Of a stretch of 64,000 nucleotides of DNA, positions 54,986 to 63,937 are shown piece after piece. Origin of the DNA: Promethearchaeota archaeon (GTDB lineage Archaea; Asgardarchaeota; Lokiarchaeia; Sigyniarchaeales; SOKP01); assembly GCA_019058365.1 (NCBI GenBank), contig JAHPZE010000002.1, positions 224,001 through 288,000 on the forward strand, read 5' to 3'. Within the stretch, counting starts at the first letter, position 1. Every line of letters starts with the position of its first letter. Under the pieces are notes generated by a model that ran no database searches, was not told the DNA's origin, and was given only the letters and a program-made list of their open reading frames with translations. The position numbers and the translations under genes were made by a program.

Positions 54986-55612
54986 ATGAAATCAATGGAT
55001 CCTAAAGACGGTGAAAATGAAATTGAGAAATTATTACAGATACTTAGTAAAGTTCAAAATATCTACTATAAAAAAAAAGAGCAACTCGAAGAGTTGCAAT
55101 CAGAGATTAGTGAATTAAGAGAAGTATTAAATTTCTTAAATTCTCTCATATCAGGAAAATCATTTCACAGCGCAGACGAGATTTACTCAAAATCATTTAT
55201 TAAAAAAGTGGATGGACCAATTGAAGAACAATACTTCGTAGAAGATATCTCAAAAGAAAGAGTTGAGGGAACAAATATCAAAAGAAAGATTTTTTCTAAA
55301 AATAAGAATAATGATGAAGAATTATTATGTATCTTGAACTTTTATGATTTGAATCGGGTTGTAATAAAAATTGTTGAACCAGAAAAGCTGTCCATAAAAG
55401 AATCTTCTGAAGAATTTATCCGTATCTTCATTAAAGGAGCACTTGTAGAAATAATAGAGAATAATCCTAATATGAGCTTGAAATATGATTATTATAAAAG
55501 TTCGGATGTAATTAAACATATTAATATTACTAATTTGAAATCAATAAAAGAATATGATATAATTACTTCAAAAATGAGAGAGCTTTTAAGCCAAAGAGCT
55601 TGGAAAGGATAA
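54986..55612 (+). CDS. Hypothetical protein with N-terminal coiled coil
   Basis: 208-aa ORF. Confidence 0.55.
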   Translation: MKSMDPKDGENEIEKLLQILSKVQNIYYKKKEQLEELQSEISELREVLNFLNSLISGKSFHSADEIYSKSFIKKVDGPIEEQYFVEDISKERVEGTNIKRKIFSKNKNNDEELLCILNFYDLNRVVIKIVEPEKLSIKESSEEFIRIFIKGALVEIIENNPNMSLKYDYYKSSDVIKHINITNLKSIKEYDIITSKMRELLSQRAWKG

Positions 55613-55791
55613 AAAAATATAATTTTGCTCTTTTAATTATCAAGTTATTCAAAAGAACTCATTCAAAATGGTTGATTTTATATACAAAATATTATATTGA
55701 GATAATATATTGTTTAATTAGAATAGGAAAAATTAATTATGCAGTAATTCTTATTTAAGTTAACCAAATTACCATATGGAAAGTATTCACA

Positions 55792-56604
55792 ATGGCAAAG
55801 AAAAAATCTTGGTTACAAATGCCAAAAGTCCATTCGAAATTTCATGATGAAAAACTCGAAAGTGTATTAATTGAAAAAGCTTTAGAGTTTTTAACTGGTG
55901 AAAATGTTGATGCCCCTTCTTTTTTATTCCTTTCAGGAGCTTTTTTTGATGTGAAATCATTCGCTTATTCCGGATTAAGAGCTTGGAAAGGTATTGTAAA
56001 ACCATCAGAAGATAATGGTGGTAGAAGACCTGTATTGGAAGCCACTTTTGCTTCTTTATCTGTGTATTTAAGTTCTTTATTAGCGCTTCAAGCTGATTTT
56101 TATTTCGCGTATGATGAAATTAAGGATATTTTATTGGAAAAGAAAAGAGAGGATCTCTGGACGATTGTTTCAGAAAAGTTGCCATTTATCTCAATCCCTC
56201 CAAAAGAAATGTATGGGACTCAAGTATCTCCTATATCTCCTTATTTTGTTATTAAACAAGACGAAGAATTAACGTTAGGAGAAATATATCCATCTGCGTA
56301 TTTATCTCAAATTATAAAGAATATTAAAACAAGATTTTTTATCTTTTTTCAATACCAAGGATACTCCGCTTTTGGATTTTTTAATGCACTACCCGAACTA
56401 TCTAAATTTGGGTTTGAAGAGCACGCGAATGATTTTAATGGGGATCCAACCGCAGAAAATTTAATCAAATACGCAAAAAATGCAAAGAATGTTAAAGAAA
56501 TATTAATTGCACTTATTCATGCCTATAATAACGCTTTGCTTGAACAATTTTTAATACCCGATTATGAATTATTATTAAATAAATTACTGGAGGGAGAAGC
56601 GTAG
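55792..56604 (+). CDS. Hypothetical protein abutting a GTPase gene
   Basis: 270-aa ORF whose stop is directly followed by the next start. Confidence 0.6.
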   Translation: MAKKKSWLQMPKVHSKFHDEKLESVLIEKALEFLTGENVDAPSFLFLSGAFFDVKSFAYSGLRAWKGIVKPSEDNGGRRPVLEATFASLSVYLSSLLALQADFYFAYDEIKDILLEKKREDLWTIVSEKLPFISIPPKEMYGTQVSPISPYFVIKQDEELTLGEIYPSAYLSQIIKNIKTRFFIFFQYQGYSAFGFFNALPELSKFGFEEHANDFNGDPTAENLIKYAKNAKNVKEILIALIHAYNNALLEQFLIPDYELLLNKLLEGEA

Positions 56605-57240
56605 TTGGTTAATATCGGTTTATTAGGAGATGTGTCCGTTGGAAAAACGAGCATCCTTCGTTTATTTGTGCGATATTTAAAGAAAGGGGATATTGAAAAG
56701 GTAAAAGGTGGATTAAAATGTTCTGTGGTTAAAGCGGATTTTTCTGGAGAAGCTACAGTCCCAGGAGGAGAAAAAGAGGATGCTCTTAATGAAAAAGAGA
56801 CAAAAACTATTCACCCTAACCGAATTGTGTTTCGGGAAGACGCAACAAATAAAGCACATACGATTTTCGCCCCTGGTGGCGACCGAGCCCGTGCTGTAGT
56901 TAAAATGGGCATTATAACAATTTCAAGAATTGCAACCCAAATAATAGCTGTTTTTTCTCTTGATAGAGAACTGGCTCCTCAATTTGAATTTTTTAATGAT
57001 GTTAGGTTTTTTCCAGATAAAATATATGTTTGTATAAATAAAATTGATTTAGTTGAAGGAAACAAAGAGAAAAAACTTAATGAGGTAAAAACGCAGATTA
57101 TTGATTTTTTTAAAACGCGAAAAATAGCGATTAATGACACATTTATAACCTGTGGTGAAACCATAGAAGGATTTGCAGATGTTGAAACGTATAATAATCA
57201 AGTCGCAGAAATGATTCTAGAAATTACTACTAAACATTAA
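56605..57240 (+). CDS. Ras-superfamily small GTPase (MglA/Arf-like, atypical G3)
   Basis: G1 GDVSVGKTS, G2 KT, G3 region IFAPGG, G4 INKID, G5 TCG. Confidence 0.82.
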   Translation: MVNIGLLGDVSVGKTSILRLFVRYLKKGDIEKVKGGLKCSVVKADFSGEATVPGGEKEDALNEKETKTIHPNRIVFREDATNKAHTIFAPGGDRARAVVKMGIITISRIATQIIAVFSLDRELAPQFEFFNDVRFFPDKIYVCINKIDLVEGNKEKKLNEVKTQIIDFFKTRKIAINDTFITCGETIEGFADVETYNNQVAEMILEITTKH

Positions 57241-57284: not shown

Positions 57285-57800
57285 TTAATTTTTCAATTTT
57301 AACGCAATTTTTAAAAATAACTTTTCTAAATCTAGTAAATATCCAATTAAAGGAGTTAAACTTACTTTATTCAAATTCTTTTCAAACAATACAAATCCCA
57401 TTTTTTTTAATTCTTTTATATCTTCTATTACCCCTTTTTTTTTACGAAGTTCTATTATTTTTTGAATTGTAGTTTCCCCAGAACTACTAAAACAACATAT
57501 TAAGGTGCAAAATAAGGTTGCAGCTAATCTAGGGTTTCCCTCAAATGGATTTGCCGAGATAATTTCAGTTGTTTCCGGATCAAAAGATATATACCAGTAA
57601 GAATTCAGAGGATTAAATCTTACTTGAAGACCTAAAGGTTCAAGATAATTAGATGCGTTATTAATTAAGTTCTGAAAATAAATCGATTTATTCTTATCTT
57701 TAACACTCAACGCGTTAAGAATTTCTTTTTTTGTCGAACCTATTATTGATATATTTTCCTTTTTGCTTAATAAATGTATTAAAACACTTAATTCATTCAC
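57285..57800 (-). CDS. Kite (tandem winged-helix) protein, Nse1/Nse3(MAGE)/ScpB-like
   Basis: INNASNYLEPLGLQVR in WH-A; IKELKKMGFV..SLTP in WH-B; last gene of the SMC operon. Confidence 0.75.
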   Translation of the reverse strand: MNELSVLIHLLSKKENISIIGSTKKEILNALSVKDKNKSIYFQNLINNASNYLEPLGLQVRFNPLNSYWYISFDPETTEIISANPFEGNPRLAATLFCTLICCFSSSGETTIQKIIELRKKKGVIEDIKELKKMGFVLFEKNLNKVSLTPLIGYLLDLEKLFLKIALKLKN

Positions 57801-57816
57801 TTTTCATTCATCTCTT

Positions 57817-58464
57817 TTATAAATACAAAAAATTCGTTTCTTTTTGATATTTTAATTTCCCTATCTGGAGTAGATGTAAAAGATATACAAAATATTCAAA
57901 AATTTTTATTTGATCATCTTCATCGCTAAAGATCTCATCATATGAACACGGTAACTTGTTTTTAATAGAATCAAAAAAAGCAATCATTTTCTCAGTGAAT
58001 TTTTTATTAGGTATTTCTAATAAGAAATTTCCTTTTGAATCTATCTTATCAATTGGTTCAATTGTAAAAGGTTCTCCTTTCTTAGCTACTAAGCGATCTT
58101 TAGAATATTCAAGAAATTCCAAGGAAAGCATATTAATAATAAAAGGTTCTCTCCAGCAGTCCCTAAATAATTTAAATATTTCTGTATCTTTTGGATTTGT
58201 TCTTAAAAAGGTTATAAATTTATCTTTGTTATCTAAATAGTTTAGGAAAATTTTTAATTCTTCAAATTTTTGACTGAGTAGTTGAAATGCACTCATATAT
58301 GTTATTGAATATTCATTAATGTTATAGATATTAAGAGAATCCTTCAAATTCTCAAAAATTGGTACTAATTCAATATCCAAAAGTGAAATTTCTCCTGAAA
58401 GAACTCTTGTTTTAATATCTTCAATTTTCTTATTTATCTCTTCAGAAAAATCTTGATAATCCAT
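57817..58464 (-). CDS. Kleisin (ScpA/Nse4-like)
   Basis: N-terminal GEISLLDIEL..SAFQLLSQK; C-terminal winged helix YDEIF..FEYFVYLLHLLQIGKLKYQ. Confidence 0.82.
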   Translation of the reverse strand: MDYQDFSEEINKKIEDIKTRVLSGEISLLDIELVPIFENLKDSLNIYNINEYSITYMSAFQLLSQKFEELKIFLNYLDNKDKFITFLRTNPKDTEIFKLFRDCWREPFIINMLSLEFLEYSKDRLVAKKGEPFTIEPIDKIDSKGNFLLEIPNKKFTEKMIAFFDSIKNKLPCSYDEIFSDEDDQIKIFEYFVYLLHLLQIGKLKYQKETNFLYL

Positions 58465-58477
58465 TTTTAATCATAAT

Positions 58478-61400
58478 TTATTTTTTTTTGATGATTTTTG
58501 GTTTAAATACAGAAGAAATTTCATTCTTTCCTACTCTGGCAATTCCAATTAATTTTTCAGCAAGTAAGAATAATGAATTTGACGATTTGGGCAAGAACAT
58601 AAATAATTGTATTGGATTTTGTTCCAACGTTGCCTTTATTAGTTGATATGCTACTTCAGAGTTCTTTTCATCTAAAAACATACCTGGTTCATCAAGTAAA
58701 CACAGCGGAGAAGGTTTAATTTCTTGAAGGGATAAAATTAAACAAATTGATATTAAAGAAACTTGACCGCCACTAAGAGCAGTAAATGATTTTAATTGGT
58801 CCTTTGAAGTAGCTGCTTTAATATTAACACCTAACTCTTCAAAATTTCCCGTCAACTCTAAAGAACAATAAGATTTTACCTGAGAATCTTGGAATTTTTT
58901 ATTAACTCTCTTTTGTAGATTTTCAAGTAAACCACTGAATTTTTCATAATATGTTTTTTCCATCTTATTTTCTGTTTTAATCGCTGATTTAACGTCATTT
59001 TCAAGCGCTTTTTGATTTTTCGAGATTTGCTTAAGAGATGCTAATATCTGATCTTTTTCAATTAGAATTGAATCATCAACATCTAAATATTTGAGTAATT
59101 CTTTATCTATACCAGAGATATCCCCTTTGATATCTTCTATGGGGCGAATCATGATTATTTCTTTTAAAATTAAAGGACTTATTTCAGAGTTAATTCTCTC
59201 TAAATCACTTTTTTTTGAATATAGATCTTGATTATAGGAATTTAATTTGATATTTTCTTGTTCAAAAGTTAATGTTATTTGAATAGATTTCCTCTCTAAT
59301 TCACTTTTTTTGTTTTGTATTAATAAAATTTCACTTTTTAAATTTGAAATCTTTTTTTTAGTTATTTCAAGTTCTTCTTCAATATTTTCTAATTGCCGAT
59401 ATGTGTTGAATGCTGTAGTGTCTGCTTTTTGAAAAGCTTCTTTCTTTGTTTCATACTCTTTTTGAATTAAGTTCTTTCCTAATATTTGTTTATTTAGATT
59501 ATCTTTCACTTCTTCTATGATGTCTGAATTCTCACTTAATTTCAAATCCCATTTTTTCTTATCTTCATTAAGTAAAGCTAATTCTTTAGGAATTTCTTTT
59601 ATTCTGTCATTCCATTTAAAAAATTCTGGATCAGTTTGAGATTTTAGATCTTGAATTTGCTGATCAAATTCTTTAATTTCATCTTTAAGAAACTGATTAG
59701 TCTTTTCCAACTCATGCATTTGATCGTATAATTGGTTTTTTTTTGATGTAATTCTTTGTTTTTGGTTAAAATTGTATAGAAGATCGTTAAAAGATTCCTT
59801 CTTTTTAAAGATATCTTGCTGAATTGTATCTATTTTAGCCTGTTCAACCTTCAATTCTGAAATGTTATTATTTAAAGATTTTACATCAGACTCTAGAACC
59901 TCAGACTGTTCTCTTTGTGTACCAGCACTTAATAATCCCTTTAATCTTTTTAAGTAAGGGGTTTCATATACATATTTATAAGATATTATTTGTTCTCCTT
60001 TTAGTGTAACACACTTTCCTTTGAAATTAAGAGAATTATAAATTTCTCTCCCAGAATGATAATCTTTTACAACAAGGCAATTTTTTACCTTTGAGTAAAT
60101 AACTTTCTTAATATCAATATCATCATCGATAATTTTAATTAATTCTGCTAAATAACCTAGCACACCATTAGCCGAAATTTTCATCATAAGCCTTATATCT
60201 ATATTTTTGGGTAGATAGATATTGCAATATGCACCAAATTTTTCTTTTAATCTCTTTAACAAGTTTAAAGTATCCCAATCTTCAGCAACAAAACTATAGA
60301 GTAATTTTTCACCAAGAACAGATTCAATTGCGTAACTTAACTCATCTTCATATTTTAAATAATCAATTATTGGACCCTTTACTTTTAATCCTCTTTTTTT
60401 TATCTCATCTTTAAGAATGGTTATATTTGATGGAAGAATTACTCTCCGTTCTCTAAGTGAAGCCTGCAAAATTTGTAGCTTTTTTAATTTTTTTGATTTC
60501 TCTAATGTTAAATGATTCATTTCAGAATCAATTTCATATATTCTTAATGATGCCCTTTTTAGTTCTTCATCAAGCTGAATCAATAGATTTTTTGTAGGAT
60601 TACCTAAAAACCATTTATTTTTTTCTAATTTATGTTCAATATCTTTAAAACTTTGAAAAAGTTGATTAATTTCATTATTAGATGCTTGTATTGATTTCTC
60701 ATTCTCTTGAATTCTAACTAATCGCTCTTTTTTTTCAATATTTATATGATTGTAATTATCCAAAAGGACTTTATTTTGTGCTATTTTTTTTATTAACTGA
60801 TTTTGTTCTATTATTAAGTTATCAATTTTTAAACCAGAATTTTTACTTTCTCTTCTTACTATTTTAATTTCATTTTCTAAGCTTTCTAGCTGTTTCTTAA
60901 AATTAGTGATAACCCTTGTAAGCTCGTTAATTTTTCCTGATAACTCATCTAACTCTTGTTTTGCTAAAATTTTATCTTTTTGCCAATTTTGGATTTTTGT
61001 AATTAATTCTTGCTTTTTATAAATTAATTCTCCCACTTTTTCAGATAGCTTATTTATGTTTTGTTCCTGTTTTGAAATTTTATTAGATAAAAGTTCTATT
61101 TCTTTATCTGAAAGGTCTTTCTTTTTTCTAATACTTTCTATGACAGATACGACATTTTTAATCATCTCTTCAATATTGATAATATCCTTTTCTAATTTGT
61201 CTTTATTTGCCCATAAAAGTTCGTCATTGAATTTATTTCTAATTTCTAATAACTCATTTTTTAGTTGTAAGCGTTCTAATTTTGGATTTAATAGCTCCAA
61301 GCTTATATTCAATGTGTTCTTTCTACTTTTTAATGATTGAAGGTCTTTATTCAAATTTAAAACGTTACTCTTCTGGTGTAATAATTCTTCTCTCAGATCT

Positions 61401-61945
61401 TTTAATCCAATTCCCTCCTCTAGAAACGAACATAATTCTGTTGGTTTCAAATTTTTAATTGCATCAATTTTTCCTTGACTTACAAAAGCAAAGTGATTAT
61501 CTGGATTAATTTTAAAATCAGAAATTAATTTTTGAATTTCTTGGACTGGAACTTTTTTAAATTCTCTATCTTCCTTTCTCTGAATTTTGAAGAAAGGAGA
61601 TTGTCCCCTAATTACATATCTTCTTATTTTAATTACTTTTTCGTCAATTTGAATATGAATTTCAACCATAGCATGATTTTGTCCATTCCTAATAAAGTTT
61701 GACCATTTCTTATATCGTTCATCTCTTTCATTACTACCCAAAGCAAATTTAATTGCTTGAAATATTGAGGTTTTTCCACTCCAATTTGGTCCTACTATAA
61801 TCACAAATTTAGATTTACCAAAATCCACTTCATCTTTCTGGAAAGATAAAAAATTTTCTAAAATGATTTTTCTAATAAAAATCCTTGAATTTTCTGTTAG
61901 AAATATTTCCTTTTTCTTCAAGTTAGAGTCTAATCGAGAAGCCAT
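58478..61945 (-). CDS. smc: SMC5/6-type SMC ATPase
   Basis: LENFLSF, GPNWSGKTS, FVSQG, coiled coils, hinge GPIIDYL..AIESVLG, LSGGQ, SPLCLLDEP.MFLDEKN, QLFMFLPK. Confidence 0.92.
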   Translation of the reverse strand: MASRLDSNLKKKEIFLTENSRIFIRKIILENFLSFQKDEVDFGKSKFVIIVGPNWSGKTSIFQAIKFALGSNERDERYKKWSNFIRNGQNHAMVEIHIQIDEKVIKIRRYVIRGQSPFFKIQRKEDREFKKVPVQEIQKLISDFKINPDNHFAFVSQGKIDAIKNLKPTELCSFLEEGIGLKDLREELLHQKSNVLNLNKDLQSLKSRKNTLNISLELLNPKLERLQLKNELLEIRNKFNDELLWANKDKLEKDIINIEEMIKNVVSVIESIRKKKDLSDKEIELLSNKISKQEQNINKLSEKVGELIYKKQELITKIQNWQKDKILAKQELDELSGKINELTRVITNFKKQLESLENEIKIVRRESKNSGLKIDNLIIEQNQLIKKIAQNKVLLDNYNHINIEKKERLVRIQENEKSIQASNNEINQLFQSFKDIEHKLEKNKWFLGNPTKNLLIQLDEELKRASLRIYEIDSEMNHLTLEKSKKLKKLQILQASLRERRVILPSNITILKDEIKKRGLKVKGPIIDYLKYEDELSYAIESVLGEKLLYSFVAEDWDTLNLLKRLKEKFGAYCNIYLPKNIDIRLMMKISANGVLGYLAELIKIIDDDIDIKKVIYSKVKNCLVVKDYHSGREIYNSLNFKGKCVTLKGEQIISYKYVYETPYLKRLKGLLSAGTQREQSEVLESDVKSLNNNISELKVEQAKIDTIQQDIFKKKESFNDLLYNFNQKQRITSKKNQLYDQMHELEKTNQFLKDEIKEFDQQIQDLKSQTDPEFFKWNDRIKEIPKELALLNEDKKKWDLKLSENSDIIEEVKDNLNKQILGKNLIQKEYETKKEAFQKADTTAFNTYRQLENIEEELEITKKKISNLKSEILLIQNKKSELERKSIQITLTFEQENIKLNSYNQDLYSKKSDLERINSEISPLILKEIIMIRPIEDIKGDISGIDKELLKYLDVDDSILIEKDQILASLKQISKNQKALENDVKSAIKTENKMEKTYYEKFSGLLENLQKRVNKKFQDSQVKSYCSLELTGNFEELGVNIKAATSKDQLKSFTALSGGQVSLISICLILSLQEIKPSPLCLLDEPGMFLDEKNSEVAYQLIKATLEQNPIQLFMFLPKSSNSLFLLAEKLIGIARVGKNEISSVFKPKIIKKK

Positions 61946-61966
61946 TTTTACCTCATTTAATATTAT

Positions 61967-63217
61967 TTATCTTCCAAAAGCTTGCTTTATTAGATCTACT
62001 CGCTTCTTAGCTTTTTCTAAATTAATCTGGGCTCTATTCGGAGAATCGTTTAAGATAAATGGATACTTTGCTAACATCTTCATATCATTATCTTCCAATG
62101 GCTCTTTTTTACTTAATTTATCAATAATAAGTATAAGTTCAGAATAGTTCTTAGAAGCAGCATTTTCATATAATTGATTTAACATAAATTCTGAAATGCC
62201 AGACTCCCGAATTCCATTAACAATATTATTAACATCCTCCGAGTTTTCAATTTTATTAACTTTTTGAATTGGGAATATTTCTCTGTCTCGATGGGATTCT
62301 GTATTTAGTTCTAAATTTGAATTTTTTTCTGAAATAAGCGGAATAGAATAAGGTATATATTCACCAGATTCAATTAAATCAATTAAAATGTCCGTTATTT
62401 CATTACTAGTCTCATTTAATTCCGAATTTAAAAAATGTTTGAATATTCCAACTTTCAATAATTGTTTAATGTCTTCTACTTCCCAATTTTCTGTGTAATT
62501 TACAATATCAGTTATATCAAACACGATCTTAGGATTTATTTCTAAAAAATCTTTTAAAACAGTTTCCCTCTCTATTTTATTTAGTAAAGGGACTTTTATA
62601 AAAAGATCAAATATATCATATAATTTGTTCGATATATTGTTAACTTCTTGAATATCATAATTTAACCATACTAGAATAATATTAGATTCAATAAAATTAA
62701 AATCAAATCCCTTATCTTGCCAAGCATTTAAAAAAACCTCTAATAAGTTTTTATCATCAAACTTCTGCTTTAGAATTGGATGTTGATTAATTAGTAATAA
62801 TCTTTTTTCCTCAATTTTATCTGGATCTCTACCATTTGCTCCAGTTTCATTTTCATTTTCTAATTTTTTACCAAAACCATTAAATATGGAAATAAAGCTT
62901 TTTAAAAATTTATTTGGAGCATTAGTGATTTCGATATCATTAAATTCAATTAAATTTAAGTAATAATTTTTAGATATTAATTTGATATAATCTAAAATAT
63001 CTGTTCCGGGATTAACATTAATTAAAACAGCTCCTTTGGGTGTTAGATAACCATTTAAAAGATTATCATGATGATTAGTTAATATTACTTTTAGATAATT
63101 TATAATATCATTATATTTATCCCGATAGAAAATATCCTCTTTATTAATCTTAATTTCTGAAGGTTTAATCATCTGAAAAAATCCTAAAAAATCCGGATTA
63201 TCGTTTAAATCTTTCAT
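61967..63217 (-). CDS. Degenerate (probably inactive) classic-clade AAA+ protein
   Basis: PKGAVLINVNPGTDI (degenerate Walker A), LLLINQ (degenerate Walker B), FDLFIKVPLLNKIERETVL..TENWEVEDIKQLL lid. Confidence 0.72.
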   Translation of the reverse strand: MKDLNDNPDFLGFFQMIKPSEIKINKEDIFYRDKYNDIINYLKVILTNHHDNLLNGYLTPKGAVLINVNPGTDILDYIKLISKNYYLNLIEFNDIEITNAPNKFLKSFISIFNGFGKKLENENETGANGRDPDKIEEKRLLLINQHPILKQKFDDKNLLEVFLNAWQDKGFDFNFIESNIILVWLNYDIQEVNNISNKLYDIFDLFIKVPLLNKIERETVLKDFLEINPKIVFDITDIVNYTENWEVEDIKQLLKVGIFKHFLNSELNETSNEITDILIDLIESGEYIPYSIPLISEKNSNLELNTESHRDREIFPIQKVNKIENSEDVNNIVNGIRESGISEFMLNQLYENAASKNYSELILIIDKLSKKEPLEDNDMKMLAKYPFILNDSPNRAQINLEKAKKRVDLIKQAFGR

Positions 63218-63487: not shown

Positions 63488-63937
63488 TTAAATCCTACTT
63501 AAAATAAATCTTGGTAATTTACCTTCATTCACAAGAATTTTTATCAAATTAGGCACACTATTCCATTGTTGAATAGAGAGGTTATATTCTTCTTCTGTAA
63601 TATCTTTAAATTGTGCAGCACGATAAGTTAGCATTACTAAAGGAGTTGTCATAAGATGCTTTACTTTATTACAGGGGAAATCATCACATTGTGCACAACT
63701 TTCTAAACCCTTATCTCGTGCACAAGGTCGAGCTTTGCAATTCTTATCAGCAATTTTATCTCCTTTACTCTTGCATCCCTCACAAACAACATTCTCTGCT
63801 GTATAATTTTCATGACCTAGATATTTTCTCCATGTATCAACCATTTTTTGTCGAATATAAACATCATCTGATCGAGCTGCACATAAATAACAATTATAAC
63901 CACAATAACCAATCATGTTATCATCAGGCTTTATCAA
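63488..63937 (-). CDS. DUF3795 Cys-rich protein
   Basis: YCGYNCYLC, CEGC, C.ARPCA..KGLESCAQCDDFPC. Confidence 0.85.
   Translation of the reverse strand: MIKPDDNMIGYCGYNCYLCAARSDDVYIRQKMVDTWRKYLGHENYTAENVVCEGCKSKGDKIADKNCKARPCARDKGLESCAQCDDFPCNKVKHLMTTPLVMLTYRAAQFKDITEEEYNLSIQQWNSVPNLIKILVNEGKLPRFILSRI

Follow-up and report, generated by a model that had tools for sequence, protein, structure and literature searches.

A degenerate AAA+ gene upstream of an SMC-kleisin-kite operon in Asgard archaea

Two complete SMC operons have been described in TACK and Asgard archaea, one of them related to SMC5/6 (van Hooff, Raas, Tromer, Eme, 10.1101/2024.01.07.573240), and the literature on the archaeal SMC5/6-related operon also includes Yoshinaga & Inagaki (10.1101/2021.05.15.444277). 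In P. syntrophicum the SMC5/6-related genes are NZ_CP042905.1_495 to _497 (10.1101/2024.01.07.573240). Here we describe a four-gene operon from the genome of a Promethearchaeota archaeon, contained in a 64,000-nucleotide stretch of contig JAHPZE010000002.1 (referred to below as the window), in which the genes for an SMC protein, a kleisin and a kite protein are preceded by a gene, the lead gene, that encodes a degenerate AAA+ protein. The corresponding locus of P. syntrophicum (L114) begins with DSAG12_00496 as lead gene, followed by smc, kleisin and kite genes, and from the numbering and order of these genes we infer that it is the published operon. Neither the main nor the supplementary text of 10.1101/2024.01.07.573240 contains the word AAA. 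The three-gene SMC-kleisin-kite set has already been published, and the new element is the upstream AAA-derived gene with its C-terminal domain (CTD), which appears in no description found in the literature that we searched, itself an incomplete library.

The window shares with the published archaeal operon its smc-kleisin-kite order and its status as a second complex beside canonical Smc-ScpAB, and the SMC of the window and the P. syntrophicum SMC encoded downstream of DSAG12_00496 belong to a single clade. It differs in carrying, upstream, an AAA-derived gene whose CTD is private; the non-Asgard members examined have SMC proteins of 548-674 amino acids and no AAA gene. The operon consists of four minus-strand open reading frames (ORFs) at window positions 57285-63217, with intergenic spacings of 21, 13 and 16 bp, and these coordinates bear out the four closely spaced, co-oriented genes reported in an initial annotation that had been made from the DNA sequence alone. 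Its features are as follows.

61967..63217, minus strand: lead AAA+-derived gene, 416 amino acids, degenerate member of the classical AAA clade (profile, model and alignment)
62993..63019, minus strand: Walker A remnant NVNPGTDIL, residues 67-75 of the lead protein, with no Lys
61970..62203, minus strand: family-specific C-terminal four-helix domain (CTD) of the lead protein, 78 residues
58478..61945, minus strand: SMC ATPase of a non-canonical, SMC5/6-related archaeal clade, 1155 amino acids (Pfam and trees)
57817..58464, minus strand: kleisin-like protein, 215 amino acids, probably Nse4-related (same place in the operon of van Hooff et al.)
57285..57800, minus strand: kite-like protein, 171 amino acids, probably a tandem winged helix (same place in the operon of van Hooff et al.)

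The lead protein and its AAA+ fold

The lead protein is laid out as an AAA domain (approximately residues 5-296), a disordered linker (residues 294-340) and the helical CTD (residues 339-416). Searched alone, the lead gene had no Pfam match; a profile of 35 homologs matched Cdc48/p97/Vps4 at E values of 1e-13 to 1e-10, and Pfam AAA was matched by 23 of 34 homologs. The AlphaFold model (pLDDT [predicted local distance difference test] score, 78.5) retrieved Msp1, FtsH and p97 in a Foldseek search at E values of about 3e-8, recovering the AAA fold that the initial annotation had read from the ORF, and it aligned with classical AAA domains at Z scores of 14-15.7 over about 245 residues. The AAA alpha/beta domain and the lid are both present in the profile and in the model. 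Assignment to the Trip13 family was considered and dropped, as the top VIA match, a bacterial Trip13 (Z 15.7), ties with p97-like entries.

The catalytic sites are degenerate. Walker A reads NVNPGTDI, Walker B reads LLLINQH and the Arg-finger site reads LYDIFD; the Walker A Lys, the Walker B Asp-Glu and the Arg finger are all missing, and the pattern GxxGxGK[ST] occurs in 0 of 86 homologs from the Loki, Thor, Baldr and Jord lineages. Ratios of nonsynonymous to synonymous substitution of about 0.18-0.26 over the whole gene and 0.05-0.15 in the CTD (three more distant pairs) indicate purifying selection. An origin by frameshift or as a pseudogene was rejected in view of the gene order in relatives and of these substitution ratios. 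The lead gene encodes a true classical AAA+ fold without catalytic motifs.

The CTD is a four-helix domain modeled at a pLDDT of 95, and it is the best-conserved region of the protein, with a mean identity of 0.36 versus 0.20-0.24 for the AAA domain. Fold searches with the CTD gave nothing above background in the PDB (best Z 5.1) and only clusters of its own family in the Atlas. The CTD was confined to 111 clusters in a search of 1.84 billion representatives, and the full-length ones resemble the lead-gene family. Nse2, Nse5 and Nse6 were not among the matches listed for the CTD fold searches, which does not by itself exclude families that were not listed. Covariation between the CTD and the SMC protein (mutual information with average product correction) amounted to noise at about 33 effective sequences, and a complex prediction that combined the CTD with the SMC head, lower arms and kleisin returned "no answer" with a score of 0.00, which is evidence neither way.

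Wadjet (JetABCD/MksBEFG) likewise combines SMC, kleisin and kite genes with one further gene in an operon of four, and the initial annotation gave the slot of JetD as one of two roles for the lead gene, the other being a loader or regulator, and offered restriction of extrachromosomal DNA as one possible function. If the system served such a defense, with the lead gene triggering or executing the response to plasmids or viruses, this would accord with the restriction of extrachromosomal DNA both by Wadjet and by eukaryotic Smc5/6, and with the IetA-type AAA ATPases that are the closest PADLOC entries to the motif-intact members of the lead-gene family (E 4e-66 for the L159 protein). However, the AAA fold and the helical CTD account for the whole ordered length of the lead protein, whose model contains no nuclease domain and none of the Toprim kind found in JetD/MksG. 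PADLOC gave no match for the lead gene, kleisin or kite and only weak ones to JetC for the SMC, which is not MukB/JetC-like. The lead gene is present in single copy and is near-universal in Loki and Thor, and the locus is vertically conserved among stable neighbors, with a GC (guanine-plus-cytosine) content similar to that of the remaining window, unlike a mobile defense island. The lead gene encodes no JetD-type nuclease, and neither a JetD slot nor a restriction function finds support in this conserved, single-copy housekeeping context. Defense is the explanation with the least support, and we regard it as very improbable.

Linkage to smc and graded decay of the catalytic motifs

The order AAA-smc-kleisin-kite is kept in all four Promethearchaeales families sampled and is the same in Thorarchaeota, Baldrarchaeia, Jordarchaeales, Freyarchaeum and family f31. 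Since it recurs in all of the Loki families sampled and in five other families of Asgard archaea, the order is not due to chance. The CTD is a single-copy domain found in 142 of 301 Asgard genomes, and by our reading of the genome scans 138 of these matches lie directly upstream of a top-scoring SMC head; among the remaining copies, that of genome G087 also adjoins smc and the other three stop at contig edges. The conservation of the AAA-like gene beside smc, on which the initial annotation had made its reading depend, is thus seen in 139 of 142 copies. Counted from the SMC side, 138 of the 140 best matches have an adjacent CTD, one lies at a contig edge and one (L134) is preceded by an intact AAA gene without the CTD. 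Six of the seven distant CTD proteins that were looked up precede an SMC gene, and the AAA-smc junction is intact even where the kite gene sits kilobases away (L069 and L152).

It could be that the lead gene is merely co-regulated with the trio and acts in the same process (replication stress, repair or the cell cycle) with no contact with the ring. Gene order by itself is no proof of contact, and the trio occurs elsewhere without the lead gene. In families f22 and f25 the cassette is joined to genes for the primase large subunit and ThiF, and neighbors therefore need not be subunits. However, in at least six Asgard families, at an identity of about 20%, the lead gene has stayed directly adjacent to smc while the other neighbors vary, and the CTD is private to the smc context. 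We consider simple co-regulation unlikely.

Several points weigh against a partnership between the lead protein and the SMC ring, the evidence for which all lies in gene neighborhood. The linkage counts are not independent because the genomes are related. One contig of 3.7 kb carries a 260-amino-acid CTD protein with no smc downstream (L166:2021-2803), the sole such case seen. Cassettes with a short SMC in three other assemblies, one of them named Thermoplasmatota, lack the AAA gene, and Asgard families f22 and f25 carry smc-kleisin-kite without it. In addition, neither the monophyly of the AAA family nor the direction of its decay is firm, because the tree branches are very long. As related trios exist without it, the lead gene is an accessory of one branch rather than a core subunit, and the dedicated fourth component proposed in the initial annotation does not hold as a core component.

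The cassettes that lack the AAA gene have features of their own. At L172-L176 (f22 and f25) an SMC of 1056-1088 amino acids that has the H-loop His is followed by a kleisin-like gene, a kite gene and the gene for the primase large subunit, and at L172 a ThiF gene is also joined to the cassette. At L169-L171 an SMC of 548-674 amino acids is found with kleisin- and kite-sized genes, and a divergent unannotated gene of 211-234 amino acids lies upstream of each. In a genome of a Jordarchaeales family, the AAA gene itself is split into ORFs of 116 and 172 amino acids (L177:4954-5792), with the half encoding the lid and CTD intact beside smc; the split may be a frameshift or an assembly error.

The lead-gene family resembles the classical AAA remodelers (Cdc48/p97, Vps4, Msp1, FtsH and Trip13, and bacterial IetA) in its AAA domain and lid, and its active members retain GPPGTGKT, DEFD and WRRFD. 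It differs from them in the lost motifs of the window protein, in the combination of a single AAA domain with a new CTD and in its placement, in a quick tree with very long branches, beyond the Cdc48/PAN group. At L159, the first gene of a complete operon has GPPGTGKT, DEFD, ATN and WRRFD all intact as well as the CTD; its taxon label, Odinarchaeota, stems from a submission in which the labels seem unreliable. The fully intact motif set was found only at L159 and L134, so that the destroyed motifs described in the initial annotation are a property of the window protein and of many relatives and not of the whole family, while the AAA+ fold itself stands on both profile and structure. The Freyarchaeum protein retains GKT with a Walker B of DN, a Helarchaeales protein retains only GKST, the Walker A of Thor reads GTDF and that of Loki has nothing left. 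In Jord and Baldr the large AAA domain is shortened, with the lid and CTD retained. The AAA and SMC trees both show Thor with f31, Baldr with Jord and a Freyr/f27 grouping. As far as sequences can tell, these comparisons show that the lead gene descends from an active classical AAA+ ATPase, with graded decay of its motifs and retention of the CTD throughout. The simplest reading is that the ancestor would have been active and that catalysis would have been lost lineage by lineage.

The L134 locus (L134:926-12187, in an f27 genome), where the intact AAA gene without the CTD precedes the gene for a divergent SMC protein, a kleisin gene and a kite gene, carries four unannotated genes of 419, 424, 209 and 589 amino acids on the opposite strand.

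That the lid is retained in proteins with a shrunken large AAA domain would also fit a different role, in which the dead AAA protein is an adaptor or inhibitor of a second ATPase, either linking the SMC complex to the MoxR-VWA chaperone pair or poisoning or targeting an active AAA ring, and in which the remodeling would be the work of this second machine. An orthologous MoxR-VWA pair does lie beside the operon in several lineages (loci L118-L137, L146-L148, L162 and L164), divergent in Thor, co-oriented upstream in Baldr and Jord and downstream at L162 and L164. However, the pair in the genome from which the window derives is unlinked to the operon (C7:52066-55526), and none of the Promethearchaeales loci examined had MoxR-VWA beside the operon. 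The clade of MoxR is a different one from that of the classical AAA proteins, and mixed rings of the two are therefore unlikely, which counts against the adaptor explanation; we regard it as rather improbable.

The SMC, kleisin and kite genes

The window SMC scores above the Pfam cutoffs for SMC_N and SMC_hinge and under the canonical Smc equivalog cutoffs, and it has a split ABC head, long coiled coils and a hinge at residues 522-635. The motifs quoted in the initial annotation (hinge GPIIDYL..AIESVLG, SPLCLLDEPGMFLD and QLFMFLPK) are all present in the ORF, together with Walker A GPNWSGKT, signature LSGGQ, Walker B LLDE and a Pro at the H-loop. The absence of the H-loop His had been read as a mark of Smc5/6; the His is indeed missing, but since some canonical SMC proteins also lack it, its loss alone is not diagnostic. 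The Pro, which is invariant at this position throughout the Asgard long-arm SMC clade, is the more specific mark. The P-loop GPNWSGKT (window 61769-61792) carries Trp at a Gly position, as do 46 of 86 homologs, all apparently of the window's own family, and the signature is mostly SGGQ; judged from this P-loop, the SMC motor may be toned down in the family. Close relatives of the SMC derive from Promethearchaeota metagenome-assembled genomes. JBHL-prefixed contigs encoding SMC proteins about 60-83% identical to that of the window are titled Hodarchaeota, Odinarchaeota, Thorarchaeota or Hermodarchaeota, and these taxon labels look unreliable.

In head trees, which like the approximately unbiased (AU) tests contained no eukaryotic Smc5/6 sequences, homology searches having returned none, the SMC proteins of the window and of P. 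syntrophicum fell in the Asgard long-arm clade (Shimodaira-Hasegawa-like approximate likelihood ratio support, 97-98), separate from canonical Smc and Rad50. The initial annotation named grouping with canonical Smc or Rad50 as grounds for refutation; these trees set the SMC apart from both, and joining the Loki SMC proteins to canonical Smc was rejected (p-AU 7e-6), but the whole long-arm clade as sister of canonical Smc was not (p-AU 0.129). The latter result leaves room for the trio to be a diverged Smc-ScpAB paralog with no specific kinship to Smc5/6, in which case "proto-Smc5/6" would be a misnomer but the accessory role proposed for the lead protein would be unaffected. The C-head profile, in which Pyrococcus-type Smc scores 111 bits and Smc5 78 bits, and the hinge profile, in which bacterial Smc scores best, also favor this. 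On the other side, the N-head profile ranks Smc5 first (102 versus 94 bits), the nearest Atlas clusters beyond that of the SMC itself are eukaryotic and include two named SMC6, the kleisin leans to Nse4_C and the published trees group the P. syntrophicum operon with SMC5/6. A diverged Smc-ScpAB origin seems to us unlikely on this evidence. The SMC5/6 label for the trio is likely and draws chiefly on the published trees, with our own similarity tests mixed; of the "Asgard proto-Smc5/6" of the initial annotation, the second, non-canonical SMC5/6-related trio stands, but it had already been published and the evidence for the label is mixed.

The kleisin and kite genes were identified through indirect matches. 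The window kleisin has no direct Pfam match; its Atlas feature match (0.91) is to a Bathyarchaeota cluster of which 18% carries Nse4_C, and a positional counterpart matches Nse4_C at an E value of 1.5e-4, under the cutoff. Four kite homologs match SMC_ScpB (best E value, 1.2e-6; cutoff not shown), and a positional counterpart of the kite matches MAGE weakly (E value, 0.005). Profiles of the two proteins found nothing significant among the ScpA- and ScpB-position genes of their own genome and nothing in sequence searches of the PDB. The kleisin thus leans weakly to Nse4_C and the kite weakly to ScpB/MAGE, which goes part of the way toward the identities given in the initial annotation. The same genome holds a canonical Smc gene with two ScpA/ScpB-position genes (C35:222050-228535) and a Rad50 cluster, and the window operon therefore encodes a second SMC complex. 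The canonical Smc (C35:222050-226501) is unusually long at 1483 amino acids, as in other members of its family.

Compared with eukaryotic Smc5/6 and its Nse2 and Nse5/6 subunits, the window would likewise encode a kite-type SMC complex with an extra regulator, and it shares the H-loop Pro, a Smc5-like N-head and, probably, an Nse4-like kleisin. It differs in having one SMC and one kite gene and an accessory protein with an AAA fold, which is neither a RING protein nor a solenoid.

The kite ORF begins with GTG, and its N-terminal MNE matches the start of its homologs. A co-oriented DUF3795 gene lies 270 bp upstream of the operon (window 63488-63937, minus strand); it is seen in some close relatives only and is probably outside the four-gene system. 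On the plus strand, a 208-amino-acid ORF, a 270-amino-acid orphan and a 211-amino-acid small-GTPase-like gene (window 54986-57240) all converge on the kite gene, and the three keep their place in most close relatives. A sigma-70 promoter scan, which is ill suited to archaea, gave hits at chance level.

A possible accessory of the SMC ring

We propose that the product of the lead gene is an accessory factor, specific to Asgard archaea and co-produced with the SMC ring; of the roles named in the initial annotation, that of loader or regulator would still be the best supposition. By homology, the trio would form an SMC homodimer closed by the Nse4-like kleisin and bound by the kite, a second ring that, judging from its family, would act on chromosomal DNA beside canonical Smc-ScpAB. 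The CTD may dock the lead protein onto this complex. Cdc48 extracts condensin, and Nse5/6 gates Smc5/6 (PMC10954462). In a similar manner to Cdc48 on condensin, the active ancestral form could have remodeled the ring, most simply by pulling on the kleisin or a head, leading to opening or release. In Loki, Thor, Baldr and Jord, the dead form could bind without using ATP and gate loading, the engagement of the heads or release; in function it would then resemble Nse5/6 or Nse2, without homology to them. From conserved gene order and the restriction of the CTD to the smc context, we judge it slightly more probable than an even chance that the lead protein is a physical accessory or regulator of the SMC ring. 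The full sequence of events, in which an active AAA+ remodeler was recruited, docked through its CTD, persists as an active loader or unloader in a few lineages and became an ATP-independent gatekeeper in Loki, Thor, Baldr and Jord, is put forward tentatively, as a possibility that we think somewhat doubtful.

How SMC rings are loaded and released in archaea is an open question, and even in the case of Smc5/6 little is understood about unloading. Natural versions of the lead protein that are active, half-dead and dead would allow direct comparison on one reconstituted ring, and one cultured Asgard archaeon, P. syntrophicum, has the lead gene (DSAG12_00496). If the lead protein does not bind the SMC ring, the locus is an ordinary member of the published group. 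If it does act as proposed, this would be, to our knowledge, the first case of a prokaryotic SMC complex that has an AAA-type subunit of its own. With the lead gene, one more component joins the archaeal starting point from which eukaryotic Smc5/6 is believed to have evolved, and, if the proposal is true, its product would be a functional forerunner of the eukaryotic SMC regulators.

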